Shown: in pieces, positions 3,021-36,478 of the stretch
How positions within the stretch are numbered: position 1 is the stretch's first letter
How the letters are laid out: every line of letters begins with the position of its first letter
IMG/VR virus record: IMGVR_UViG_3300018080_005419
DNA: 64,000 bases
Direction: 5' to 3' (one strand)
From: a virus
Program-made: the position numbers and the translations under genes
The notes under the pieces: model-generated
Seen by the model: the letters and a program-made list of their open reading frames with translations, nothing else
Database searches by the model: none
What the model was told of the DNA's origin: nothing

Positions 3021-3368
3021 ATGGATAGAAAATCACAAGTAAGAGTGTTAATTCCCAATCAGTTAGATGTGATTTTTAATAATAAAGTCGTAACATCTGA
3101 CAAAAAAATCCTTATGTATATCGAAAATAATAATGGCATTGAAAAAATTGTCCGTGGTTCTCGTGTTGTTCCATATATCGGAGAACAACCAATTGAGACA
3201 AGCATAAAATTTAAAAATGGACCTAATGGCTGGGTAGAGTTTAAAGATAGCGAAGGGAATAAACAAAAATTAACCGGAAACATCTTCGCGTATTTATCTG
3301 TTCCTTTTGAGTCAGGAGAAACACCTCCAAAAGTCAAATTATATGTTTCGGATCTGCAAGACAACTAA
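3021..3368 (+). CDS. Hypothetical protein
   Basis: 115-aa ORF between two plus-strand genes, with a purine-rich RBS. Confidence 0.65.
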   Translation: MDRKSQVRVLIPNQLDVIFNNKVVTSDKKILMYIENNNGIEKIVRGSRVVPYIGEQPIETSIKFKNGPNGWVEFKDSEGNKQKLTGNIFAYLSVPFESGETPPKVKLYVSDLQDN

Positions 3369-3386
3369 TCAGGATTACAAACAATC

Positions 3387-4076
3387 ATGTCAGATTCTAA
3401 AAAATTAGATGAACGGATTGAGCTAGTTCACGATTATTGGATTGATCCTGATAGTCGCGAAATTTGGATACATGGAATTGATAATACAGGTGATGAAGAA
3501 GGAGAGCCCGGTGTTGATCATCAAATGGCAACTCGTGTAATTAAAAATCTTCACTATCTCCGCAAACAATCTACAAGAGCAACTGTTACAATCCATCTCC
3601 ATACTTGTGGTGGATATGTAGGAGAAGGATTTGCTATTTACGATACTATCAGATTAATGCCTTATCCTGTAACAATCATCAGTTACACTCATGCCAGAAG
3701 TATGTCGTCAGTTATACTTCAAGCAGCAGCAGGACCAGATGATACAAGATTGCTTTTACCCAGTAGTCATTTTATGTTTCATTTTGGGTCATACGAAACA
3801 CATGGAATTTCTCAACAAGTTTATAGCGAAATTGATTTCTTTAAAAAGTATGATGAATTAATGATAGATATTTATATAGAATCTGTTAAAAATGGTAAAA
3901 AATTTAAAGGAGTAACAGATAAAAGAATCAGAAAAGAATTGATAGATAGAATGAACAGCAAAGTAGATGTTTATTTAACTGCTGAAGAAGCGGTTGAATG
4001 GGGATTTGCTGACGGAATACTTGAAACTTGGCCGAATACATGCAAATGGAAAAGAGGAAACACTAAGAAGGTTTAA
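3387..4076 (+). CDS. clpP: ClpP-like serine protease (S14 family)
   Basis: HTCGGYVGEGFAIYD, catalytic Ser in ARSMSS, His in HFMFH, Asp in DVYLTAEEAVEWGFAD. Confidence 0.85.
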   Translation: MSDSKKLDERIELVHDYWIDPDSREIWIHGIDNTGDEEGEPGVDHQMATRVIKNLHYLRKQSTRATVTIHLHTCGGYVGEGFAIYDTIRLMPYPVTIISYTHARSMSSVILQAAAGPDDTRLLLPSSHFMFHFGSYETHGISQQVYSEIDFFKKYDELMIDIYIESVKNGKKFKGVTDKRIRKELIDRMNSKVDVYLTAEEAVEWGFADGILETWPNTCKWKRGNTKKV

Positions 4077-4179
4077 ATTCAACGATTGTCAAATCTTCAT
4101 TTTCAAGCTCTTCTTCTATAATTTCCAAAACCTTATTCCAATCGCCACCTGCTAAACCACAACCTATTATCGTTTTCAT
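4063..4179 (-). pseudogene. 38-codon macro-domain remnant
   Basis: Manual translation gives MKTIIGCGLAGGDWNKVLEIIEEELENEDLTIVEFKPS. The ATG overlaps the stop of the upstream nuclease (ATGA). IGCGLAGGDW is the signature C-terminal loop of phage Poa1p-like macro domains. Confidence 0.65.
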
Positions 4180-5195
4180 GCTGATGGCCTTTTAGACAAA
4201 ATATAAGTAATTGTATCATCTGGTAATCCTACTTCTATTGCTCTTTTTTCAAGCATATCCCACACATCAATTCTGGATATTCCGATATTTGCCAAACTTT
4301 TTGCAACCTCTTCAAATTCAGCTTCTGTTACTTCCTTATCGTCAAATGAAACGCCAACCTTCTCGTCAATAAATGGCGCTCCTTCTTTAAATACCTCTTC
4401 TTGGGTTAATGCAGATTCAACATTCCACATTTCCCACTTATATTTTTTAGTTTTGGGATCGATTAATATATCAACTCCACGAATAGGTCTGTCTACATCA
4501 TATTCGTTCTTTTGAGTTCTTGCTAGCGATCCAGGATTTATAAAAAGTGTGCCAATATCAGTAATAGTAGGATTAAAGCCCTGATGAAGATCTCCGCATA
4601 AAACAACATCTATAGATCTTTTTCCGTCGTTTTCTGTTTTAAACTCTCTTAAATCAATACCATAATGTTCATCTAATTTATCCATTAACAAATGATGTAC
4701 AAGAACAACACGAATATCGATATCTTTTGGGCGTTTTCTACTTGAAACTCGCATAGACCATTTAATCGGGTCAGAACTATTAGGACAAGCCAAAAATCCA
4801 ATTTTTAACCCTTGAATGTCTTTAACTAAGTCTTTATCTGTAGGAATTTCTTCAATGTTTTCAATAACACGAGAAGCCTGTCTGAATATAAAAGCTTGAG
4901 TGGATAAATGTCGCGTTCCATAGTCTTTGCCGTATAGATCGTGTTGGCCCCATGTATATAAAAATGGAACTTTAAGATGTTCATCAAAAATATGGATAGC
5001 TTTTTCTTTAACTTGATCCGCATTAAGTCTATATGTATGACAAAAATCACCTCCGAACAGTGCTAAGTCTGATTCGGAGGCGTGTTGAATACAATCTTTT
5101 AATTTTCCTAGAATAGTTTCAGGGTAATCGTCTTTTCTGCTGATAGGACCCTGACCACGCAAATGAAGATCGGTAAAGAATGAAAGTCTAATCAT
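4176..5195 (-). CDS. SbcD/Mre11/gp47-like metallophosphoesterase nuclease
   Basis: FTDLHL, GGDFCH, WGQHD, LVHH, CGDLH, then INPGSLAR. Confidence 0.8.
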   Translation of the reverse strand: MIRLSFFTDLHLRGQGPISRKDDYPETILGKLKDCIQHASESDLALFGGDFCHTYRLNADQVKEKAIHIFDEHLKVPFLYTWGQHDLYGKDYGTRHLSTQAFIFRQASRVIENIEEIPTDKDLVKDIQGLKIGFLACPNSSDPIKWSMRVSSRKRPKDIDIRVVLVHHLLMDKLDEHYGIDLREFKTENDGKRSIDVVLCGDLHQGFNPTITDIGTLFINPGSLARTQKNEYDVDRPIRGVDILIDPKTKKYKWEMWNVESALTQEEVFKEGAPFIDEKVGVSFDDKEVTEAEFEEVAKSLANIGISRIDVWDMLEKRAIEVGLPDDTITYILSKRPSA

Positions 5196-5246
5196 TGTTT
5201 TTTCCTTGTTAATTATGTCGCAAGATAGCGGGTAATGTTTTAATTA

Positions 5247-5555
5247 TTATATAGCGGGAACTCCATGTTGGTATCCGTAAATAACGCCAAACTTTGTTGT
5301 GAATCTTTCCTGGATCATTTGCGTATAGCCAGCAGTAGTAGGAGCAGAATATAGATCCTTATAATACAGACGTTTGTAGTTTTCTCCTTCTCCATCAGGA
5401 AGTGTAGAAGGTATATCCAAATACCGAATAATTTGATTTCGATAATCAGCGTCAGCCTCAGCAATAGGTACATTTACATATGGATTTGGGTCATTTGCTC
5501 GAATATCGTTTGGAACAGTAACAGTAAAATCATAATCTTGTGTATAAACAGGCAT
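5247..5555 (-). CDS. Hypothetical protein
   Basis: 102-aa ORF with AAGGAGG RBS, directly downstream of the DnaE C-half. Confidence 0.7.
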   Translation of the reverse strand: MPVYTQDYDFTVTVPNDIRANDPNPYVNVPIAEADADYRNQIIRYLDIPSTLPDGEGENYKRLYYKDLYSAPTTAGYTQMIQERFTTKFGVIYGYQHGVPAI

Positions 5556-5577
5556 AATTTGACCTCCTTAAATTGTA

Positions 5578-22780: not shown

Positions 22781-24121
22781 TTATTTAGAAGTGCTTTCGG
22801 ATTTACACTCATCCGATTTCTTGCACTTTTTACATTCTCCATCACTATCATCATAGTAACCAAAACAACTCGGCTTAATGTCCCCAGTATCTTCATCAGA
22901 TTCAGATTCTAAATCGTCTTCTGGGGCTTCTTTGGTCGGTGCTTCTTCGGCGGGTTCTTCCTCCTTAGCCTCTTCAGTTGGCTTGGCCGGTTTTGAAGGT
23001 GGTTTTGGCTTAGAAGGAGCTTTTGGAGGTTTTGGCGGAGAAGGTTTTTTACTAAAGGTTTCGTTTTTTGGTTCAGGCTTTTCTTCAACTTCAGATTCAG
23101 TTTCTGGCTCGGGATCGGCCTCTGGCTTTTCAGGAGATTCTGAGGCATCTTCGAATTCATCTGCTACACTTGCTGCTCTACGTTTGGGAGCAGCAGCACG
23201 ACGAACAGGAGGCTTAGGTTTATCTTCAGACGATTCTTCCGATTCGCTTCCAGAATCAGTTTTTATTGTCTTTTGAACAGGAGAATCCGAAGGATAATCT
23301 TCAGAAGTTTTACCTAATACATCAGTAATTAATTCTTGATATGCGGGTTTAAGAGATTCAAACAATGTTCTTGGAGACATATGGCTTGCAATATAACGAA
23401 TGAGATCCAAAGGAGCCATACCCTTTTCTTCATCGGTCAATGGTGTTACTTTAATATTAGGACCATCCAGAGCAAAGGCAGCACCGTAAGTAATTCTAGT
23501 TCCTTGATGTTTTGAAACAACAACATCACATCCTTCATCCGGATCGGCAATTTGAGGATATTGTTTTGCAAGTGCCTCAATTGCTTCAGTTCCTTCAGTT
23601 CCAAGATTTAAAATTTTCCAGCCTAGACCCTCGGTTTCGTTTCCATCAGGATCTTTTGTCTTGACAATGGGATCTGCGCGTGAAATTGCATCCCAAGAAT
23701 ATCTACTGCGAGGGAAAGATTTGCCAGAAATTTCCTTCATTTTCTTTTCTAAATCTTGATCTTCACTTTCTTTAGCTTCTTTCCTGCGAATATTCGAAGC
23801 TAAACGAAGATCACAAATAGGACAACAATGCAGTTCTTCTTCGCTACGGGATTGATTGTCAATATCCCAATTCATACATGTTACATTTGTTGATACAGCT
23901 GCTCTTTCTTCACCTTTGGGCTTTAGGGCATCGGCAGAAACAAGATCTTTAATATAATGCCTTTCACAAACAGCAACATTTCCACCCAAACGAACAACAT
24001 TATCACCCTCTTCCAATTGCACCCATAAACCCGACATTGTTGAAAAGCTTTTGGCCTTTCGGTTGGACCCAGAAGATCCAGTTGCTGCTTTTGCTTTCTG
24101 AAGCTTTGCTAAAACGTCCAT
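22781..24121 (-). CDS. Phage single-stranded DNA-binding protein (gp32-like), long acidic/Pro-rich linker, C-terminal 4-Cys motif
   Basis: WVQLEEGDNVVRL, CPICD, RYSWDAI, KILNLG, DPDEGCDVVVSK..GTRITY. Adjacent to recA. Confidence 0.6.
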   Translation of the reverse strand: MDVLAKLQKAKAATGSSGSNRKAKSFSTMSGLWVQLEEGDNVVRLGGNVAVCERHYIKDLVSADALKPKGEERAAVSTNVTCMNWDIDNQSRSEEELHCCPICDLRLASNIRRKEAKESEDQDLEKKMKEISGKSFPRSRYSWDAISRADPIVKTKDPDGNETEGLGWKILNLGTEGTEAIEALAKQYPQIADPDEGCDVVVSKHQGTRITYGAAFALDGPNIKVTPLTDEEKGMAPLDLIRYIASHMSPRTLFESLKPAYQELITDVLGKTSEDYPSDSPVQKTIKTDSGSESEESSEDKPKPPVRRAAAPKRRAASVADEFEDASESPEKPEADPEPETESEVEEKPEPKNETFSKKPSPPKPPKAPSKPKPPSKPAKPTEEAKEEEPAEEAPTKEAPEDDLESESDEDTGDIKPSCFGYYDDSDGECKKCKKSDECKSESTSK

Positions 24122-24243
24122 TGTGACTTTCCTTTCCTACTTGTTCAAACGGCTAACCAAGACAATTTCGTCTCTACAAATGAGCCAACGTACTCTTTGT
24201 AGGCAACAATTATTATATCCTCATTAAACGCAAAAATTAAAAA

Positions 24244-24762
24244 TTAACTGTGAAATTTTTGCGGTTGAGTAACACTTGTAAGTCCATTCAGGCTAAAACC
24301 TTTCTTCTCCCATACTTCCACCCACGACTTTAAATCTCTTACTGCAGCCTTATAATATTTAATAGATTCATGAAAATATTTAAAATCAGTTCTAAGTGGG
24401 CCATCTTCTATTTCGCTCAAAACAATAGCTAAATTTTGAATATCCTCTTTGCTTGGTCTGGACATTCCATATTCTTCCTTGGCATATCTCGTGATAATTC
24501 CCTTTTCTCTAATAATTCCTTGGTTAAGTTGCGCCTCTAAATCTTCTAATTCCGTTTGAGCCATATTATACATATGAGAGAAATAAGCCAATGCTGCCGC
24601 GTGAATTTTCCAATGCTCATGTACAGTTTCTTCCATAATTGCCAAAAGCTGTTCCGCATCTACTTCTGAAATAGCAGTATCGCCAATACGGAAATCGCCA
24701 GCTTTTGTCATACAGGATCTTATTTTTTCAAGAATACCATCAAATTCATCTTCGCTACTCAT
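24244..24762 (-). CDS. Helical hypothetical protein, possibly UvsY-like recombination mediator
   Basis: All-helical pattern and position next to SSB/recA. The family call is weak. Confidence 0.35.
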   Translation of the reverse strand: MSSEDEFDGILEKIRSCMTKAGDFRIGDTAISEVDAEQLLAIMEETVHEHWKIHAAALAYFSHMYNMAQTELEDLEAQLNQGIIREKGIITRYAKEEYGMSRPSKEDIQNLAIVLSEIEDGPLRTDFKYFHESIKYYKAAVRDLKSWVEVWEKKGFSLNGLTSVTQPQKFHS

Positions 24763-25444
24763 CTTTGGATTCCTCTTCTAATCCTGATTCATATTCGCTA
24801 AGATAATTTTCCAGGTCACTCGTAGTCATGCTGCCATTATCTTCGCGAATTAACATTCTTTGTATTTCTTCATTCCCAGTTTTTTCGAATAACATTTCTC
24901 CGCTTTTTCGTATTGATTCTCTCTTACTTATTCTATCCTCTTCGTTTGTTCTTTTTCTAATTTTATCTCTATTGGTCATAAAAAATCTTGACATTACCCA
25001 AGTTCCACATACTACTTTTACAACTGGACTAAACTTTCTCCTAATGTTATCGTCATCAAAGAAAACATCAAAAACCCATGACAAATATTCTTTTATAGAA
25101 ATATTTTTGTCTTTCAATTTTTTAATTGAAGCTTTAATAACTCCTATTTCATCAGGCGGTATTTTCGTCTTATATTCAATATCTGTTTCTTGAACATATC
25201 TATCACGAAAATAAGCAATAAAATAACGTATTTCTTCACCTTCTGAGTATTCTATTTCATCGCCTTCTTTTATAACCCTTTTTGGCAATTTTCCATCTTT
25301 TTTGTTTAACTCTTCCTGTAACATCTCACCTAATATATTCATTTGAAACCGAATTTTTTTATTTGTAATCTTCGGCCAGCAAATGCCAATAGTATTCAAT
25401 AAATAAGTCTCTATACGTACTGGAGACCTTCTTGGTCCTGCCAT
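24755..25444 (-). CDS. Hypothetical protein
   Basis: 229-aa ORF overlapping both neighbours. Confidence 0.7.
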   Translation of the reverse strand: MAGPRRSPVRIETYLLNTIGICWPKITNKKIRFQMNILGEMLQEELNKKDGKLPKRVIKEGDEIEYSEGEEIRYFIAYFRDRYVQETDIEYKTKIPPDEIGVIKASIKKLKDKNISIKEYLSWVFDVFFDDDNIRRKFSPVVKVVCGTWVMSRFFMTNRDKIRKRTNEEDRISKRESIRKSGEMLFEKTGNEEIQRMLIREDNGSMTTSDLENYLSEYESGLEEESKDE

Positions 25445-26571
25445 TATTCGTCTCCAAACTCATCGCGTCCTCTACTTCGACGTTTCTTCCCTTTATATGA
25501 TACCGTTGAATCTCCTTCTTCATCCTTTTTTTCTGTTAATTTTGCTTTCTTATAATGGGTTATAGCTCTTTTAACTGATGGACTTCCTTCGCTATAAATC
25601 ATGTCAATTTTTTCGACAAAATCTTTTTCAGAAGTTATGTCGAAATCCTCGTATAAATGTTTGGCAACTGTTTTCCCTATGCCTGAAATACCAACTAATC
25701 TTGTAAGTTTAGTAGGAACCCCATATTTATATCGCATTTCCAAAGCATTAACAAAACCACTCATATCGCCCCACATTCTCCGACAACAATTGCACATAGC
25801 ACTAATTGCAGCAAACATTCTTGGCATATCGCTCTTTACAGAATAAAAACATGGAAGCTCCACCCTAGGATTTCTACCCATTAAAGCACAATGTACAGCC
25901 AAAAGTCTACTAATAGATCCTTCTCTTATGCTTAAACCTCGACCTATAATATTTTCACACAATGTTGTTGCCTGACTCCTTACCATTTCAGAGTCCCATT
26001 CTTGCGCCATATATAAATTAGCAATAGCCCATGCTTGACAATAATCATTAAAAAGCAAATCTTTCTTGTGCAATGTAGAAATATTAGAAAACCAATCTCG
26101 AACATCATAAGGAGAAAAATAAAATGCTGCACAAATTTTTCCTAATGGTTTTGCCTTTATTTTTCCAGTTTCAGGATCAAATTCGGCAGATCCAGTATCG
26201 TGTAATTCCTGTGCAATATCTTCATAAACAGGAATTTTTTCTCCCCTAGATGTTCTTTGAAATTTATCCAATGTAAAATCATACCAGTTTAAAAATGATT
26301 TTTTATCATATATAATTTTACGTACAACTTGAGAAATTACATGGAAGGCAAATGTAGATATGTCGTTTAAAGTTGATCTGGTCTCATATGAACTATCATC
26401 GGAGAATTTCTTTTTCCATATTATTGCATCATCATTGGCAAGAACAATGTGTACATCTGCTTCATCTTGACCATGCATCCTTCCCGCTCTCCCAGCCATT
26501 TGCTTAGTGTCTCTTGGTCTTAGAGAGCTACCAGCACGTCTTACATCAACAATAATTACACGATCTGCCAT
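25444..26571 (-). CDS. Ski2/Hel308-like SF2 helicase, C-terminal fragment
   Basis: Begins MADRVII (end of motif V), then motif VI QMAGRAGR, a winged-helix-like region and HhH-like LVGISGIGKTVA. Confidence 0.85.
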   Translation of the reverse strand: MADRVIIVDVRRAGSSLRPRDTKQMAGRAGRMHGQDEADVHIVLANDDAIIWKKKFSDDSSYETRSTLNDISTFAFHVISQVVRKIIYDKKSFLNWYDFTLDKFQRTSRGEKIPVYEDIAQELHDTGSAEFDPETGKIKAKPLGKICAAFYFSPYDVRDWFSNISTLHKKDLLFNDYCQAWAIANLYMAQEWDSEMVRSQATTLCENIIGRGLSIREGSISRLLAVHCALMGRNPRVELPCFYSVKSDMPRMFAAISAMCNCCRRMWGDMSGFVNALEMRYKYGVPTKLTRLVGISGIGKTVAKHLYEDFDITSEKDFVEKIDMIYSEGSPSVKRAITHYKKAKLTEKKDEEGDSTVSYKGKKRRSRGRDEFGDE

Positions 26572-26628
26572 CTTATTAACAAATCCCTTTTAAAAATTTA
26601 AAATGCAAGAATGAAACAGAGGAGAGAT

Positions 26629-27558
26629 TTATAGATTGACGCCCATCGCCAAAGCAGATGTAGTTACTAATACATTTAAATCACATATTTGATTTTTAAA
26701 TTGAGCTTCTAAAAATTTTCTTTCGTCGGGCTTTAAACCAGCATGATAAAATGCAGCTTTAATTTTTCTCTTCATTAGGGCCTCTGTTACATTACGTCCT
26801 ATTCTTTTCGAATGGACAAACACAAGTATCTTATCCACCGGGTTCTTTCTTATTATTCTAACCGTCTCATCAATCATATTTTCTTCAAATTCCCAACGAT
26901 CTTTAGATTTCCTTACTCCCTTCCAATGAATATTCAATGTAACAGGTCGCCAATCAGAAGAAATACAATAAGTAGGTTTCCCATTTAAACTTTTGAGCCA
27001 TGCAGCTATCTCTTTAGCATTAGACATAGTTGCAGATAAACCAACAATTCTCGCTTTTTTGTTAATCTTTGTAAAATTAACAAGGCCGACCTCTAAAGCG
27101 GCCCCACGTACAGGCTCATCTAATAAATGCATCTCATCTAAAACCAGAACTCCTACATCAGCCAACCATTTTCCGTGCATACCAGGATTACGAGATTTGC
27201 TGTCCAATGTTTCACTAGTAACAATAATAAGCCTAGCTCTCTCAAAATCCTCTGCACGAGCCATATAATCGCCTGTATTAATAATTTTAGGAACTTCAGA
27301 CCATTCTTCTATTGTATTAAATTGGGCCATTCTTTCGTCAGATATGGCCTTGAGAGGAGATGCATATACGCATTTTGTATCGCTCACTGTTGCAATCTCA
27401 TGAGCAAAAAAACACATCGCCACAGCTGTTTTTCCAGTGGATGTGTTTAAAGCAACAATTAAATTACAATCTTTATCTGCGAATTGTACTGCTTCTGATT
27501 GTGGCTTGTTAAATTCTTCAAATGGAAATGATAAATGCTTAAATTCAGATGTTTTCAT
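26629..27558 (-). CDS. Ski2/Hel308-like SF2 helicase, N-terminal fragment
   Basis: FNKPQ, NTSTGKT, SPLKAI, LDEMH, LSATM, ILVFVHSK, YHAGL. Ends TTSALAMGVNL-stop, inside motif V. Confidence 0.88.
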   Translation of the reverse strand: MKTSEFKHLSFPFEEFNKPQSEAVQFADKDCNLIVALNTSTGKTAVAMCFFAHEIATVSDTKCVYASPLKAISDERMAQFNTIEEWSEVPKIINTGDYMARAEDFERARLIIVTSETLDSKSRNPGMHGKWLADVGVLVLDEMHLLDEPVRGAALEVGLVNFTKINKKARIVGLSATMSNAKEIAAWLKSLNGKPTYCISSDWRPVTLNIHWKGVRKSKDRWEFEENMIDETVRIIRKNPVDKILVFVHSKRIGRNVTEALMKRKIKAAFYHAGLKPDERKFLEAQFKNQICDLNVLVTTSALAMGVNL

Positions 27559-28082
27559 TTATAATGTTGCTCAACAAATGGTTTAATCAATTCTTTTATA
27601 TGTTTATCGTCGCTTCCCATATTGATATTCATTGAAGGACCACCTTTATTGCGTCCTCCAATTTCAAAATAAACAAAATTTCTTTTCTTAGCCAAAAAAG
27701 ACATAACTCTTCCACCAATTTTTAAAGATGCTGTGGTACGACCAGGATTATATTTAATAGAATCATGTTTAATTAGACCTGCCGCAGCATTCACACAATG
27801 ATCAAAGAAGGCTTGTTTTCCTAATTCTGCCATTTCTTTATTTTTTGCCTTCTTCTCTTGTGGAGTATTGGGGATTACTTTTTCTTCCTGGCCAAGTTCA
27901 TCAATATCTTTTTTCATACTTTGTTCTGATTCATTGGCTCTACTAATAGTGTATGTTCTGCACCATTCTGATCTCGCGCAACTAGAAGGATGACAATCAG
28001 AAGCCACGTTGCTAAACCACCCAAAACATGCTCCCGGCTCCAATACTATATCTTTTTCATCCACCAATGATTTGCTACTCAT
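27555..28082 (-). CDS. Hypothetical protein with N-terminal CFG 4-Cys motif
   Basis: GACFGWFSNVASDCHPSSCARSEWC. Confidence 0.65.
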   Translation of the reverse strand: MSSKSLVDEKDIVLEPGACFGWFSNVASDCHPSSCARSEWCRTYTISRANESEQSMKKDIDELGQEEKVIPNTPQEKKAKNKEMAELGKQAFFDHCVNAAAGLIKHDSIKYNPGRTTASLKIGGRVMSFLAKKRNFVYFEIGGRNKGGPSMNINMGSDDKHIKELIKPFVEQHYK

Positions 28083-28095
28083 AAAACTCTCCCTT

Positions 28096-29010
28096 CTAGT
28101 TGTTATTAATTATGTCCCAAATATCAACCACATCATTATGCAAAATTGATGTCAATTTCTTCTCAGAAAATACTTCAAATGGGCGAGGAGGAACAATTTG
28201 ACTTGAGAGAATTAAAGGAATAAAATCGTGTTTCTTAAGCCAAGGATCAACACGATCAACAATACGTTTAACAACTCCTGGAGAAACATCAAATTTTTCA
28301 GCAACAATTTCGATGCATTTCTTATTTCTGCCGGTTTTTGGTTTAGGAAGTTTCTTGATATCCAAAAGCATATTGAGAATGCGATAATCTTTTAATGTTT
28401 TGCATACCGATTTATAAAGTTTCATTCTCATTTGCTCAAAAACAATCATATCCTCACTCTTTTGTCGCTCTTTATCCATTACTTCAAGGCTGGGAGGTTC
28501 ATACTCTTTGTTTTCTTCATCAACAAAATTGTGGATTGAAATTGGATTGAAATTTGCTTCAATAAATTCAATATCACCATCATTATTCCGCTTTGTTGTA
28601 ATTCCTGTTATCATTCGCGCCTCTTTATGTTTAATCAATTTAAGATATGTTGAACGTAGAATGACACCAATATAAGTAGAAGGTAAAATTGGTTTTTTCT
28701 CTCCATCTTTATTTAATCGATATGGCTGATATTTCTTTAATCTTGTCCATACACTTATCATGCCATATTGAACAAGGTCGCTAAGAGAGAAAAATTCCTT
28801 AAGACTTGAATGAAAATTTTGAGCCATTTTAATCGCAAACCTATGATAACTATTTGTAAGTTGTAGATCTTCTTCTTTAGTAATTGTATCATTCTGCAAT
28901 TTTTTAATAAGTTTCTTTTGTAGTTTATTTCTCTCTTTTGAATTTAAATCTTCATATGTTGAGTCTAAGTAAATGTACTCGTACTGTTTTTCGTTTTTTT
29001 CTCGTAACAT
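28096..29010 (-). CDS. Phage sigma-70-family transcription factor
   Basis: Region 2-like LTNSYHRFAIKMAQNF...SLSDLVQYGMISVW...STYI, and region 4 HTH IEIVAEKFDVSPGVVKRI. Start moved to ATG 29010, which has an RBS. Confidence 0.7.
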   Translation of the reverse strand: MLREKNEKQYEYIYLDSTYEDLNSKERNKLQKKLIKKLQNDTITKEEDLQLTNSYHRFAIKMAQNFHSSLKEFFSLSDLVQYGMISVWTRLKKYQPYRLNKDGEKKPILPSTYIGVILRSTYLKLIKHKEARMITGITTKRNNDGDIEFIEANFNPISIHNFVDEENKEYEPPSLEVMDKERQKSEDMIVFEQMRMKLYKSVCKTLKDYRILNMLLDIKKLPKPKTGRNKKCIEIVAEKFDVSPGVVKRIVDRVDPWLKKHDFIPLILSSQIVPPRPFEVFSEKKLTSILHNDVVDIWDIINNN

Positions 29011-29046
29011 GCTTCTCCACCCTCCCCAGAACAACCTGCTATCAAC

Positions 29047-30180
29047 TTAGGACCGTCCCAAGTCGAGATCACCATATGTGAATACTTCTTCAGTTTTGTT
29101 TTTGAGATAGTAGAGAATTTCACTGCGATTTAAATCTTTCGGGTCTCTGCCTTTTGCTAGTTTAGTTATATATACGGAATTAAATATAGAAAGCAAGTCT
29201 TTTATTATTTTTTCTGTTCCTCTTTCTCCTCCCTCATCCCCATCAAGCATTATAACTACTTTACGTGGATGAAGTTTACTGAGAATTAAGAGTTGATCGT
29301 TGCTCAAATTTGTTCCCCCAATTCCTAATGTTCCTGGGAAACCTTCTTGACGTAATTTCATCAAATCTCTACATCCCTCAACCAAAATAGCTACTTCATT
29401 TTTAGGACAAGATTCCGCGCCAAATAAACATTTTCCAACCTTAAATCCTTTTGGATATCTTACTTTTCTATAATCATCTGGCCTACTTCTTCTTAGTTGT
29501 TTAGTATTCATATCGACAACTTTATTATTTTTCTTTAACCAATCATCTAAACCCAATACATCTGTTGCAACAAATCCTATAAGATCATAATCGCTATTTC
29601 TAATTGGAAAAATCAATCTATCTTTGTAAAATCCGTGGGTAAACTCAACACAACCAAAATCTAAAGCAGTCTTAGGTAATATGTTATTTTTAGCAAGAAG
29701 AGAAATAGCCCCAGAGTGCAATTCTCCTTCTTCTATATAACTTTCAAATTTGTCAATGTCTAAAGCAGAAATTTCTCTAATTGGTTCAGATGTTGGATTG
29801 ATAAGATTTTTGATTCGTTTGTATTTTGCCTCTATAGAATTAATAGGTGTTCCAAGTATCCATTCTATTGCTTCTATTTTTGAAATTTTACGAATTCTTG
29901 CTGTTTCATATACCAAATTGCTTCCGCGTGATTCTGTAAAACAATTTGTCTTACCAGTTCTAACATTGATTGTCCATTTGGGATGACTTGGTTCTCTACC
30001 CGTAAAAGACATATGTGTGGGACAATAACCCCATATTTGATCGCCTCTTCTTGAAACAATTTGAATATTTAATCTATCCAATACAGATTCTACATCAATC
30101 GAATCCATGATCCAACTGATGTCAGAACAATCCAAATCGCTAAGCGAAATGTCGCCCATTGATGATTCTAAGTGATACAT
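29047..30180 (-). CDS. dnaG: DnaG-like DNA primase
   Basis: Zn-finger-like CPTH...CFT, RLIFPIR, KVRYP, TOPRIM LVEGCRD, LDGDEGG, RDPKD. Confidence 0.85.
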   Translation of the reverse strand: MYHLESSMGDISLSDLDCSDISWIMDSIDVESVLDRLNIQIVSRRGDQIWGYCPTHMSFTGREPSHPKWTINVRTGKTNCFTESRGSNLVYETARIRKISKIEAIEWILGTPINSIEAKYKRIKNLINPTSEPIREISALDIDKFESYIEEGELHSGAISLLAKNNILPKTALDFGCVEFTHGFYKDRLIFPIRNSDYDLIGFVATDVLGLDDWLKKNNKVVDMNTKQLRRSRPDDYRKVRYPKGFKVGKCLFGAESCPKNEVAILVEGCRDLMKLRQEGFPGTLGIGGTNLSNDQLLILSKLHPRKVVIMLDGDEGGERGTEKIIKDLLSIFNSVYITKLAKGRDPKDLNRSEILYYLKNKTEEVFTYGDLDLGRS

Positions 30181-30225
30181 GAACCGCCTTCGTTGTCAGC
30201 CAATTTGTTATCCTGATTGTTCTCC

Positions 30226-30253
30226 ATTATAGAAATCTGGCTGAAGTTGTCAA
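30226..30253 (-). promoter_or_regulatory. Consensus sigma-70 promoter upstream of primase
   Basis: Minus strand reads TTGACA-16 bp-TATAAT, about 45 bp upstream of the primase ATG. Confidence 0.75.
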
Positions 30254-30270
30254 CAAAAATCGGGAATTTT

Positions 30271-31329
30271 TTAACTTATTAACCAGTCAGGCTTTAGGAA
30301 CCTTCTTCTTGTTGAAAAATCCCAAGGAGTAAACGGATCATTTGGATCGCAGTTAGCAAGTTCTGTGGCTTTGATTGCATCATAAGTCTGCGCAACACGG
30401 TCATCTGAAAGGAAGCATTGGGATAAAATCATAGATTCCAGACTTTGCGGTAATGTTGCTCCCATACGTTCATCTTTATTCCCAGGATTAATATTACCAC
30501 TCCTAGAAGAAAGAATTAAATGGGTTAGCTGAAGAATAATATCCTCATCTAATGACCAACTATCATCTTCTTCGGGAATACCTGCATATGATTTGCACTT
30601 CTTTGGATTTTGCTTTAAGTTGATAATTCCAAGCATTAAACGGTTATACGATAAAGACACATCTCCATATAATGATCCTTTTAATGTAACAGTTGGGATA
30701 TGATCAACTAAATCAAAAGCATAAATTTTCCCACTATTAGAAATAAAAGATGCAGCAATCAATAACTCTTTTGAAATATCTTTTAGATTATAGACATATG
30801 CCATTTGTTCAGCAGCAGCAGATACACGACAAGACTGCATCAAAGCACCACCCATAGATCCATATCGTGCGCCTTCTGAAGCTGGAGTGTTGAAAAACAA
30901 TTCTTTAATCTTATCAGTAAAAACAGCTTTAAAAATTGCTTTAAGAGTTGGGTTGTTGATTTGAGAAGCGGCATCGTCAAAGGTAGATTTGTATTCATCA
31001 ATATTATCAACTACCAAAACAAAGTCATCAATATCGACATCATCTTCATTTATATTGACAATTTCTTTTGCGATTATGTTAGTAGCGCCACCATATTCCT
31101 GACTATGGCCTTTAATAAAAACATAAGAACAAGTCTCAAATCCCTCAAAGGCACTCCAATATTTTGCAATTCTGGCCCCTGTCTTATCACGAAGCTTCAA
31201 ATCACAATAGGGTTTACCTGTTTTGGTAAGCTTTTCAGATGCTTCGCACAAATAATAAGCAGATTCAATCGTCATCCCAGGAACGATTGTGGCAAGAGGT
31301 GTGTTGTTATAAGTGGATTTGCCGCTCAT
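30271..31329 (-). CDS. YhaM/Cbf1-like OB-fold + HD-fold protein with degenerate HD motif
   Basis: KLTKTGKPYCDLKLRDKTG and VFIKGHSQEYGG (OB-fold). Where HH...GGL.EH and HDIGK are expected it has YGSMGGALMQS and SNSGK. Confidence 0.7.
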   Translation of the reverse strand: MSGKSTYNNTPLATIVPGMTIESAYYLCEASEKLTKTGKPYCDLKLRDKTGARIAKYWSAFEGFETCSYVFIKGHSQEYGGATNIIAKEIVNINEDDVDIDDFVLVVDNIDEYKSTFDDAASQINNPTLKAIFKAVFTDKIKELFFNTPASEGARYGSMGGALMQSCRVSAAAEQMAYVYNLKDISKELLIAASFISNSGKIYAFDLVDHIPTVTLKGSLYGDVSLSYNRLMLGIINLKQNPKKCKSYAGIPEEDDSWSLDEDIILQLTHLILSSRSGNINPGNKDERMGATLPQSLESMILSQCFLSDDRVAQTYDAIKATELANCDPNDPFTPWDFSTRRRFLKPDWLIS

Positions 31330-33331: not shown

Positions 33332-36300
33332 TTATAAATATTTAAGTGCTTCTTTCGCTCCAAAGGATTTAATAGCGCAAACTTGATCTACATTGTCTCC
33401 AATAGCCGCAGCAGAAAGAACATCCTTATCTTTTAATACCTTTCTTACATGGTCTTCTATTGTATTCAAACAAATAAAATTAATTACATTTACCACATGT
33501 TTTGTCGTAATTCTGTGCGCTCTATCCGTTCTCTGTTTCATAATAGCCGGAGACCAATTGTCATCGTAATGTAAAACATAAGATGCTTCCTGGAAATTAA
33601 GTCCTGTTGATCCTGCTTCATCCATAACACAGATATTTACTGTTGGATCTTCATTGAATTCTTTAGCAATTTGAGGGCGCTTTTTCTTGGATACTCTCCC
33701 TGTAATTTTAAAAGTTTTCCAACCATTCTTTTCAAATTCTACATACAATCTGTCTACCATTTGTTCAAACATAGAAAACACTAAAACCTTATTATTATTA
33801 GCAATAACTTCTTCTAATAATTCCATACAAGCATTAAATTTAGATCCAAATTCGGGATATTCATCGACAAGAAAAGGAGCATTACAAAATTGTCGCGCTC
33901 TTAAAACTGCTGTAATTACTTCTGCTTCTTCGGTGACTTTATGGGCTTGATTACGAATAGCATTATATATTTTTCTTTCCTCTGTTGACAATTCCACATA
34001 TACATTTTTAAAGATCTTTTCAGGCAGTTCTTTTGCTACTTCTTCTTTTAATCTTCTCAGAAAAAATGGCTCTATTGTTTTTCTTACCTCATCAACATTC
34101 ATATACCCAACAACTGCATTCCATTCATTTCTAATAGCATACTTGTCTAAGAATTTTCCTCTTGTCATAAATAAACCAGGAACAAGAAATTCAAAAATGC
34201 TATGTAGATCTTCTAGTTTTCCATCAATTGGAGTTCCTGACAATCCTATTCTAATGCCGTTTTCTGAAAGCTTAAGTTTCTTCATTACTTTGGATCTAGT
34301 TGATTTCCAATTTTTAAGCATATGAATTTCATCAACAATAATAATATCAAAATCATCACGTAAAACATCAGCATCATCAAAATCTCTTACTATTAATTCT
34401 GGATTAACAACAATAAAAAAGGCATCTGTATTCCAAAGCGTATCTCGTTTATCAGGAGAACCATCAACAATTACAAAATCTTCATTTGTCCAGAATTCCA
34501 GTTCTTCTTTCCAGTTATATTTAACAGAAGCAGGAGCAACAATTAAACATTTTTTTGCTTTATTAAATTTCTTTCTCCAGAGCGCCATTGCTATTGATTG
34601 CATACTATTATGCCCGAGAGCTAAATCTACCACATAATTAGATTCACCACTAATTTCAAAATCATATACATAATCATTATATTTTTCTTCTTTTATATCT
34701 TGAATTTGTAGCCATATATAATCTTCATAAATCATAGATTCTAATTCTTTAAGTGTTTCTTTAATTTCTTTTTTGTTATCTTTTAAATTCTTTTTCATAG
34801 CTTCTCGTCTAGCACTCCATTTGGATCGTGTAATATCAGGAATGCCATTTTTAATCACATTTTTAATTGTTTTTATAATTTTAATAACTGTTTCTGTTGA
34901 GGGATTTTGAGGTATGACTTTTTCCGAAACATGTACATATTCAATTCCACTAAGATTGTATGTAAAATCGCTAATTTTTAATAGTTTCCTTAATATGTGT
35001 CTGCATGGAATACTATTGGCAATATTTGTATTTTCTGTTTTGGAACATAGTTTATTTAATCTTTCATTTTTTCTTTTCGAAATAAATCCTATTTTTTCTT
35101 TAAATATCCTTGCATATTTTCCTCCTATGGTGATTCTCCAATATAATGCATTTCCCCACCTCGGAGTATATATTGTTTTATTATTTATAACTCCAACTAT
35201 TCCAAAACGTCTTAACATATAGTGCATAGATCTAATTATACTTTCTGATTTTGAAGATAATTCAATATTGTCCTTGTTACAACACCCCTCTGCTTCAAAA
35301 TAGTGTTGAATAAATGCCTTAGCAACACTTTCATTAGAATTAGTAATTTTTTCAGGAATAATTTTATCCCCCGAAAGAGAACCCCAACAATAATCTGGAA
35401 ATTTTTTCTTCAACCAATTTTTATATATTTTAGAAGTAATTCTTAAATAAGAACAATGATTTCTGTCTTCTTTGATAAGATGTATATTTGGATTTTCTTC
35501 AAATTTTAAGTCTTTAAAAATTTTTCGAAGTTTGATAAGAATAGATCTTTCTTTTTGAGAAATTGTAAAAGTGCTTGATTTATATTCGTGACCCTCTGCA
35601 ATTTGCCAAGCTAATAATATTGCACAATTTTTATTTATTTCCTCTTTACTATTACATGATGGAATTATTTTTGGAACTAATATCCAATCTCCAATTTTTA
35701 GATTTTTAGCTTTAATCCATTTATTTTCATTGTTCCAAAATAAATGTCTCAATCCGACCTCTATTTTAGATCCATCCTGAAGAGTAATCGATCTTATTTT
35801 TCTTACCTTTTCTCTATAAATATTTATCGCTTTTTGATATTTTGATTTTTGTTTTTTAATTCCCAAAACTTTAATTTTTGATAATTTTCTCCATTCTCCT
35901 CTTCCTTCTTTAATCGATGTATTTGGATCGCTATAGTTATCCCATATTTCTTCTAATGTTGTAGATCCGATATTTTTAACACAAACTCTACTATTTTTAG
36001 AGGCGCATTTGCCGAGTCCCATGGTATCCCCAAGAAGCAAACCATATTTTACCAGGGTGAAGAATTGTACACCTAGTTTTTGATAATTTCTTAGAGATAT
36101 TCCTTCTGGGGGACTAATACCTGGGATTCTTAAGGATATGGGATGATCTTTGAGTGCTGCCTTTTTAACTTTTTTAAGCTCTTCTATTCTTGCTACTTCT
36201 TGTTCTGTTATATCACCTATTCTTGGATCTAAAAAATCAAAGGGGATTTTATCTAATAACATTTCAAGATTAGGAATAGTAAAGAACCAAGCCCATCCTT

Positions 36301-36478
36301 TTGGCTCTCCCGGATGCCATGTACCTCCCAATCTTTTTAGGTTTTCCTTATCTGCAAATGGACTTTCTACAATAAGCAGATTTTCTTCTTCTAAATAAAA
36401 TAAACTTCTTGTGCCTGGAGCGTCGAATTTAATAGGCAATAATCCGCTCTTGGCCATCTTTTTGGGAGGCTTAGCCAA
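33332..36478 (-). CDS. SNF2/SWI2-family helicase with one intein
   Basis: LRNYQ, GDTMGLGK|intein|SMQ, VAPASVKYNW, VDEIH, LSGTPI, FLRRLK, KVLVFS, STGLNFQ, QRTDRAHR. Confidence 0.92.
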   Translation of the reverse strand: MAKPPKKMAKSGLLPIKFDAPGTRSLFYLEEENLLIVESPFADKENLKRLGGTWHPGEPKGWAWFFTIPNLEMLLDKIPFDFLDPRIGDITEQEVARIEELKKVKKAALKDHPISLRIPGISPPEGISLRNYQKLGVQFFTLVKYGLLLGDTMGLGKCASKNSRVCVKNIGSTTLEEIWDNYSDPNTSIKEGRGEWRKLSKIKVLGIKKQKSKYQKAINIYREKVRKIRSITLQDGSKIEVGLRHLFWNNENKWIKAKNLKIGDWILVPKIIPSCNSKEEINKNCAILLAWQIAEGHEYKSSTFTISQKERSILIKLRKIFKDLKFEENPNIHLIKEDRNHCSYLRITSKIYKNWLKKKFPDYCWGSLSGDKIIPEKITNSNESVAKAFIQHYFEAEGCCNKDNIELSSKSESIIRSMHYMLRRFGIVGVINNKTIYTPRWGNALYWRITIGGKYARIFKEKIGFISKRKNERLNKLCSKTENTNIANSIPCRHILRKLLKISDFTYNLSGIEYVHVSEKVIPQNPSTETVIKIIKTIKNVIKNGIPDITRSKWSARREAMKKNLKDNKKEIKETLKELESMIYEDYIWLQIQDIKEEKYNDYVYDFEISGESNYVVDLALGHNSMQSIAMALWRKKFNKAKKCLIVAPASVKYNWKEELEFWTNEDFVIVDGSPDKRDTLWNTDAFFIVVNPELIVRDFDDADVLRDDFDIIIVDEIHMLKNWKSTRSKVMKKLKLSENGIRIGLSGTPIDGKLEDLHSIFEFLVPGLFMTRGKFLDKYAIRNEWNAVVGYMNVDEVRKTIEPFFLRRLKEEVAKELPEKIFKNVYVELSTEERKIYNAIRNQAHKVTEEAEVITAVLRARQFCNAPFLVDEYPEFGSKFNACMELLEEVIANNNKVLVFSMFEQMVDRLYVEFEKNGWKTFKITGRVSKKKRPQIAKEFNEDPTVNICVMDEAGSTGLNFQEASYVLHYDDNWSPAIMKQRTDRAHRITTKHVVNVINFICLNTIEDHVRKVLKDKDVLSAAAIGDNVDQVCAIKSFGAKEALKYL
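34607..36007 (-). mobile_element. 467-aa intein with LAGLIDADG homing endonuclease, inserted in the Walker A motif
   Basis: Starts at Cys (GK|CASKNSRV) and ends HN|S. Block F YVYDFEI. LAGLIDADG-like helices LLAWQIAEG and FIQHYFEAEG. Confidence 0.9.

Follow-up and report, generated by a model that had tools for sequence, protein, structure and literature searches.

A Hel308-type DNA helicase probably made as two polypeptides, with a conserved break in motif V, in an uncultured phage

The window analyzed here, a 64,000-nucleotide (nt) stretch of the IMG/VR virus record IMGVR_UViG_3300018080_005419, contains two adjacent open reading frames (ORFs) on the minus strand that together encode the parts of one helicase of superfamily 2 (SF2). 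The upstream gene (N-half) stops within motif V of the second RecA-like domain (RecA2) and the downstream gene (C-half) resumes at the next strand (Table 1). The pair very probably specifies a Hel308/Hjm-type SF2 DNA helicase that is made as two polypeptides, its gene having been fractured anciently in motif V and the break having become fixed. A first-pass annotation of the window had described a helicase split at this point, and its reading of both gene ends was verified with coordinates.

The two halves and the gap between them

The N-half terminates with the residues ...TTSALAMGVNL (end sequence NVLVTTSALAMGVNL) and a TAA stop codon at 26631-26629, and the C-half opens with MADRVII from an ATG at 26571-26569 (MADRVIIVDVRR...QMAGRAGR). 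Within the N-half, a first RecA-like domain (RecA1) with the Walker A motif STGKT, the DExH box DEMH, and the motif SAT is followed by RecA2 up to motif V. The C-half continues with the ADRVIIV strand, motif VI (QMAGRAGR), the last RecA2 strand, winged-helix and ratchet domains, a helix-hairpin-helix (HhH) motif (GIGKT), and a basic/acidic tail. The N-half is matched by the Pfam families DEAD (6.5e-21), ResIII (6.8e-9), and Helicase_C (profile positions 5-81 of 110); the C-half has zero Pfam matches. Both halves align with PHROG 6819 ('Holliday junction branch migration helicase', 645 positions), the N-half covering positions 18-302 and the C-half 305-471, so the cut is clean and has neither removed nor repeated any part. 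Alignment to fused homologues backs the clean cut and places the Met of the C-half at the Pro position of GVNLP-ARRVII.

Table 1. Coordinates of the split helicase genes and associated features in the window.
Feature	Position	Strand	Basis or location
N-half gene, 309 amino acids	26629..27558	minus	Pfam, PHROG 6819, homologous clusters
C-half gene, 375 amino acids	25444..26571	minus	PHROG 6819, Hel308 profile match, secondary structure of the model
Intergenic spacer, 57 nt	26572..26628	minus	between the N-half stop and the C-half ATG
Shine-Dalgarno-like AAGGGA	26584..26589	minus	12 nt before the C-half ATG
Candidate weak hairpin	26579..26632	minus	arms 26632-26623 and 26588-26579; would cover the UAA stop and the Shine-Dalgarno sequence
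Perfect promoter TTGACA-16-TATAAT	30226..30253	minus	upstream of the primase gene; 12/12 matches

The N-half stop codon and the spacer together measure 60 nt, both ORFs lie in one frame, and the spacer contains a second in-frame TAA. These features, the Met at the Pro position of GVNLPA, and a ribosome-binding site for the C-half had all been noted in the first-pass annotation and are all present, the last as a Shine-Dalgarno (SD)-like sequence ahead of the ATG. The hexamers GTCAAT (26640-26635) and GTTAAT (26580-26575), which had been likened to a degenerate duplication, are indeed separated by exactly 60 nt; the closest relative lacks the second Val-Asn, and the resemblance is a coincidence.

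The spacer is unique in the window, and its interpretation as a repeated element was rejected because neither of its halves recurs. It contains no ORF, and hence no endonuclease gene lies between the window halves. On its coding strand it has neither a sigma-70-type promoter nor a terminator. An Rfam scan of 26300-26900 at E <= 1 gave no match in the spacer and one chance 18-bit match outside it. The window halves likewise carry no intein blocks and no Pfam intein match. Neither an N-terminal nor a C-terminal intein part (IntN, IntC) is present, as the N-half ends with GVNL and a stop and the C-half starts with MADR, and the residue at position +1 is not Cys, Ser, or Thr. Without intein residues or a +1 nucleophile, protein splicing of the window halves is impossible.

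The fold of the pair was modeled from a read-through translation with TAA rendered as Gln, which served as a folding device only, together with 96 aligned homologues, some fused and some half-length. Rows of close C-halves, whose first 30 residues were misplaced in a 115-row version, were left out of this alignment. The model is one Hel308 fold, with a predicted local distance difference test (pLDDT) score of 92.5 and a predicted template modeling (pTM) score of 0.89; low confidence is confined to residues 311-324, which are the spacer peptide (pLDDT below 50), and the charged tail. In the RecA2 sheet, strands 244-247, 268-271, and 296-299 come from the N-half, and strands 333-337 and 366-374 come from the C-half, as does the motif-VI helix (348-355). 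Structurally, the model is closest to Hel308 (9b15/2p6r), Hjm (2zj8), Brr2, and the Pol theta helicase domain. The top matches extend over the full length, and Foldseek scored Hel308 at E 5e-33 with a template modeling score of 0.66-0.68. A profile of the C-half aligns with residues 340-675 of Hel308 (9b15/2p6r) at E 3e-35, and this sequence-profile match agrees with the structural one. Taken together, the two proteins have the RecA1, RecA2, winged-helix, ratchet, and HhH features of a Hel308/Ski2-like SF2 helicase, for which 3'-5' DNA unwinding or branch-migration activity would be expected.

Conservation of the break and variation of the gap

Close relatives were compared at 12 loci, comprising the window and 11 fetched relatives, all of which are metagenomic contigs. 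The break falls at the identical residue in all 12, with the N-half ending in GVNL and a stop and the C-half running from ADRV. The spacers vary: they measure 57 nt in the window, 12 nt in five relatives, 13 nt in two, and 16, 40, 43, and 47 nt in the others. The stop and spacer add up to a multiple of three in half of the loci (6/12); a single 12-nt architecture accounts for five of them, and a second in-frame stop occurs in three of these in-frame loci. TAA, TAG, and TGA all serve as stops, the C-half starts with ATG, GTG, or TTG, and a purine-rich SD sequence lies 6-12 nt before the start in every one of the 12 spacers. Since ATG, GTG, and TTG occur at one position, initiation is the sole sensible role of that codon, and the use of all three stops excludes stop-codon reassignment. 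By this comparison, the 57-nt spacer of the window is an ordinary intercistronic gap in a longer form peculiar to its lineage, and its in-frame state is accidental.

Wider protein searches returned the same two products. A word-indexed search with the C-half found 20 stand-alone proteins of 348-377 amino acids and 45-70% identity, all beginning [M/V/L]ADRV. A search with the N-half found about 92 clusters of around 300 amino acids, with identity down to 33%, all stopping at GVN[LI], GVNIG, or GVNLGG. Some close relatives, belonging to the window's own subclade, contain a mini-intein of about 145 amino acids in motif VI of the C-half (QQM/CVGLNT...VTHN/CGRAGR; carriers P0016, L017 at 4001-5560, and L018 at 3277-4779). 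One half of an already split helicase has thus been invaded again.

More distant relatives, likewise metagenomic contigs, have whole genes in the gap. At seven such loci (L010, 10001-12695; L023-L028, around 3200-4000), whose C-halves are 23-39% identical to that of the window, a gene of 190-240 amino acids resembling family-4 uracil-DNA glycosylases (UDG; CxxC...GQxPG) lies between the halves on the same strand and overlaps both neighbors; in L023, for example, the overlaps take in the N-half stop and the C-half start. Gene order in this branch otherwise matches that of the window (primase, sigma-like, small ORF, N-half, [UDG], C-half, ... RecA, exonuclease). A tubulin gene is found 8 kb downstream in L010. 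At L031 (3045-6038), the N-half ends with STSTLAFGINV and a stop, followed by a 78-amino-acid ORF (DUF4926-like), a gene of the Endonuclease_7 family (3e-20), and then directly by MARRVVVVG. The Endonuclease_7 gene is a candidate free-standing homing endonuclease. The N-half of this locus also bears an N-terminal Zn_ribbon_Top1 extension. At L007, the C-half start lies in an 8-nt overlap with a ThyX gene, and at L029 the N-half is absent within 2.8 kb upstream of the C-half. The gap genes of distant relatives span 560-820 nt, and both halves were found at all 19 loci of sufficient length to contain them. Such intervening genes are irreconcilable with bypass, read-through, or a tiny intron, and the halves are therefore separate polypeptides.

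Inteins occur in motif V of further homologues. At least 12 fused homologues contain a full intein, ending ...HN and followed by CN[LTM]PAR, that is inserted between the G and the V/C of the motif. At L008 (1277-4313; the locus of P0030), the N-half ends with an IntN that begins at Ser (ALAWG/SLHEDTMI...), and a reverse-strand Phage_pRha gene separates it from a C-half with an IntC. An IntC of about 37 amino acids stands at the start of P0030 and P0057, and that of L008 ends ...VHN/CNTSAQ.

Both halves are under strong purifying selection. The least-saturated pairwise ratios of nonsynonymous to synonymous substitution (dN/dS) range from 0.055 to 0.12 in the N-half and from 0.09 to 0.14 in the C-half, values that exclude pseudogenization. 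The split also appears to be widespread, with at least 61 protein clusters at 50% identity in one clade. An exhaustive phmmer search with the C-half against 1.84 billion cluster representatives (50% identity) gave 420 matches; among the best 150 of these, 65 are C-half-only proteins aligned from query residue 1 and 70 are fused proteins of 600-1300 amino acids. In a FastTree phylogeny of the C-half region (160 rows), a single clade (support 97) unites 61 split forms and one truncated fragment, and all fused and intein-bearing forms lie opposite it in this unrooted tree. An IQ-TREE subsample, also unrooted, separates 20 main-clade rows from the rest by a branch with support 96; the deep branches of the trees are weakly supported. 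The split pair P0033/P0113 is placed among fused forms by both FastTree and a quick IQ-TREE run. Independent origins for these two splits were considered; a single clade containing every split form survived an approximately unbiased (AU) test (p 0.69), so these two splits do not demonstrate recurrence. One ancient fracture would be sufficient to account for the trees.

Proposed two-chain assembly and competing explanations

RecA2 motifs IV-VI, including the arginine finger (QxxGRAGR), are complete only in the sum of both ORFs. The N-half alone is without the arginine finger and the C-half alone opens with an orphan strand. This division of motif VI and the RecA2 strands between the chains is our main argument that the two must assemble. 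The N-half would supply RecA1 and the first three RecA2 strands, while the C-half, translated from its own SD sequence and start codon, would complete RecA2 with its next strand, the arginine-finger helix of motif VI, and its last strand, and would add the winged-helix, ratchet, and HhH domains. The chains would associate non-covalently to make up the RecA2 sheet in trans, and the motor would presumably work only after docking, because ATP hydrolysis needs motif VI. Both halves would be co-transcribed in a replication/recombination operon (primase, sigma-like, N-half, C-half, ... RecA), with simple proximity within that operon as the default means of coupling. The split would most likely be the stabilized remnant of an endonuclease- or intein-type fracture event, in which a mobile element may have invaded a hot spot at motif V. 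A two-chain helicase was one of two readings offered in the first-pass annotation, and the break conserved throughout a deep clade, the separate SD sequences and starts, the intervening genes, and the purifying selection all speak for it.

Several observations weigh against this account. The fused homologues guided the single-chain model, which consequently speaks for homology and not for assembly. The SD-to-ATG distance is 12 nt in the window, compared with 6-10 nt in the relatives. The closest relative (L003, a 3.2-kb contig) keeps only N-half residues 237-309, beside unrelated DNA. Its remnant (1-1050) comprises 73 residues that are 93% identical, and an upstream reverse-strand ORF has a weak OB-fold match; this arrangement could reflect a rearrangement within the N-half or a chimeric assembly. 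As for the origin, the motif-V intein insertion point of the homologues lies three residues upstream of the window's split point, and there is no endonuclease here. Because of this offset and absence, a mobile-element origin is something that we infer.

The two-chain helicase may be subject to an additional level of control, although we regard this as rather unlikely. A hairpin over the N-half stop region and the C-half SD sequence would be melted by the terminating ribosome, resulting in tight 1:1 coupling. The spacer ends had been said to pair, and the arms AUAAAUCUCU and AGGGAUUUGU do form a helix of 10 bp with two G-U pairs in both the minimum free energy (MFE) and centroid folds. The fold is nevertheless no more stable than dinucleotide shuffles of the spacer (MFE -5.8 kcal/mol, z -0.51, 58 of 200 shuffles equally stable; z +0.33 with flanks), and the same is true of the other three long spacers (z +0.96, -0.93, -1.31). 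A post-stop pyrimidine run also pairs with the SD sequence in L003 (UUCCU/AGGAG) and L014 (UUUCC/GGAGU, CUCUA/UAGAU), so pairing of this kind is predicted in three of the four long spacers, and no promoter in the spacer is able to feed the C-half independently. Against this, L013 folds differently, eight of the 12 loci have spacers of 12-16 nt that are too short for a coupling stem, and the long-spacer sequences are too few for covariation. Pairing of this sort is to be expected of a coupling hairpin, but AT-rich sequence with an SD sequence and a nearby CU-rich run also pairs easily by chance.

It is improbable that the halves work apart, the N-half as a stand-alone ATPase or loader and the C-half as a stand-alone DNA-binding factor (winged-helix, ratchet, HhH). 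Each has its own initiation signals, and in some relatives they are separated by genes or non-adjacent. However, the N-half would have to act without motif VI and two RecA2 core strands, and the orphan beta-strand and motif VI of the C-half would be functionless alone. The residues of motifs V and VI are, moreover, the best conserved parts of both halves, and no locus long enough to show both has lost one.

We attach almost no credence to a joining of the ORFs into one chain, whether by bypass as in T4 gene 60, stop read-through, a tiny intron, or protein ligation. The window by itself invites the idea, as its stop follows the last sense codon, the stop and spacer measure exactly 60 nt in frame, and a hairpin can be drawn; the first-pass annotation accordingly named a tiny excised or bypassed element as its other reading. 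That reading fails on several counts. Two in-frame TAA codons would have to be passed. The take-off codon would be CUA, for which there is no in-frame CUA or UUA landing codon before the ATG, the only nearby UUA (26579-26577) being out of frame. Relatives include out-of-frame spacers of 13, 16, 40, 43, and 47 nt or whole genes at this position, use all three stops, and have GTG and TTG at the Met position, which fit only start codons. Gaps of 12-16 nt are too short for a group I/II intron or an archaeal bulge-helix-bulge intron, and the spacer has no Rfam match, just as the halves have neither intein blocks nor a Cys, Ser, or Thr at +1. A recent pseudogene arising by nonsense or insertion mutation is equally hard to credit. 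In its favor, the stop interrupts a motif that is universally conserved, and what remains of the gene runs collinear with intact homologues. The first-pass annotation had named a spacer not conserved in relatives, together with relaxed selection, as signs of recent pseudogenization; the spacer is indeed not conserved, but relaxed selection is not seen (dN/dS 0.06-0.14 in both halves). The same break is found down to 23-45% identity, and both ORFs are intact, of constant length (309 and about 374 amino acids), and retain all catalytic motifs.

Known systems, possible origin, and genome setting

The phage pair has the same five-domain order as archaeal Hel308/Hjm (2p6r, 9b15, 2zj8) and its wider kin, the Brr2 cassettes and Pol theta/HELQ, and contains all of motifs I, II (DExH), III, V, and VI. 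Hel308 and Hjm are single chains, whereas the phage pair is cut between the GVNL of motif V and the next strand; sequence identity is about 24%.

Naturally fractured phage replication genes are already known. In Aeromonas phage Aeh1, an intein-free fracture by a free-standing endonuclease has produced nrdA-a/mobE/nrdA-b, the parts of which reassemble (PMC3045599; PMC2677866). As in Aeh1, a break in a conserved region has left a conserved gene of replication or nucleotide metabolism as two translated ORFs, and non-covalent reassembly is expected. The helicase halves are likewise separately translated and kept by selection, as seen from the SD sequences and ATG, GTG, or TTG starts at 12 loci and the dN/dS of 0.06-0.14. 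The Aeh1 gap contains an endonuclease, whereas that of the window is 57 nt only; in the relative L031, though, an Endonuclease_7 gene stands directly before the C-half. The gap of many other helicase relatives holds a UDG-like gene and not a homing endonuclease. The helicase split is also far older and wider (at least 61 clusters at 50% identity) and passes through the middle of a RecA-like domain. It is this position of the cut, along with its age and breadth, that is unusual.

Two further systems invite comparison. Other fractured genes encode naturally split inteins, such as gp41-1, NrdJ-1, and IMPDH-1 (Dassa et al. 2009, PMC2677866); the helicase homologue at L008 is arranged in this way, and the window halves differ in having no intein residues or +1 nucleophile. 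Phage T4 provides both the translational bypass of gene 60 and the split topoisomerase of genes 39/60 (bioRxiv 10.1101/2022.08.31.505936). Like gene 60, the locus belongs to a phage replication enzyme and has a short non-coding stretch after a stop in conserved coding sequence, with a drawable hairpin. It differs in that its take-off codon has no matching landing codon, a second stop lies in frame, an SD sequence and start codon are present, and the spacers of its relatives vary in length and can be out of frame; two chains are expected, not one.

The split form was also sought in reference collections and the literature. A search of GenBank phage DNA with the 3-kb region gave no match. Translated searches (tblastn) of 50,697 GenBank phage records with the C-half and a distant C-half gave one match, the uncultured 595-kb phage LR756511, in which the gene is fused at 675 amino acids; the split form is thus absent from these records. 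A single-protein scan of IMG/VR gave no match, and no description of a split Hel308-like helicase, or of any split helicase in phages, was found in full-text literature.

The homologues form a series of fused genes, fused genes with an intein, split inteins, an endonuclease in the gap, another gene in the gap, and a bare gap. This series documents the fracture of essential phage genes by mobile elements and how such a fracture turns permanent. A more far-reaching scenario, which we advance tentatively and consider somewhat less probable than its contrary, is that an uncultured jumbo-phage clade possesses an obligately heterodimeric Hel308 with a RecA2 made whole in trans. A mobile element at a homing hot spot in motif V would have left the break as a fixed scar, and the gap would later have become a landing pad for the UDG-like gene, endonuclease VII, and possibly ThyX. 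If true, this intein-free fracture within a helicase motor domain may be the deepest known, and it would offer a natural design for splitting SF2 motors.

A helicase motor domain is normally formed by one chain; here a cut in motif V is kept by purifying selection across proteins that are about 25% identical. The motif-V break is therefore a natural split site for SF2 helicases and could serve split-protein engineering. For annotation, such ORF pairs should be labeled as two subunits of one helicase and not as pseudogenes or 'hypothetical protein'.

The source phage is uncultured and has a genome of about 280 kb (280,011 bp recorded); the window is dense, coded on one strand, and has a GC content of 31-40%. 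The helicase pair sits in a replication/recombination block. Upstream are genes for a DnaB-like helicase, a 352-amino-acid protein, a primase, a weakly matched sigma-70 region-2 protein, and a 175-amino-acid protein, which precedes the N-half. The C-half is followed by genes for proteins of 229, 172, and 446 amino acids and RecA, and further on by glycosyltransferases and a 5'-3' exonuclease. The promoter upstream of the primase gene (Table 1) is the only full sigma-70 consensus on this strand within 24000-30400, and no terminator was found downstream of it on the strand. It likely starts an operon of the primase, sigma-like, 175-amino-acid, N-half, C-half, 229-amino-acid, and 172-amino-acid genes, the synteny of which recurs in relatives.

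The genes flanking the pair, which encode the 229-amino-acid (24755-25444, minus strand) and 175-amino-acid (27555-28082, minus strand) proteins, have no Pfam or PHROG match. They hold their positions beside the halves in all close relatives (228 and 181 amino acids in L001/L002), and their products may be helicase partners. Elsewhere in the window, a SNF2-family helicase of 1048 amino acids (33332-36478, minus strand) has an intein inserted in its SNF2 domain. With matches to Intein_splicing (3e-18) and a LAGLIDADG_3 endonuclease domain (2.5e-16), it is another mobile element in the replication genes of this phage.

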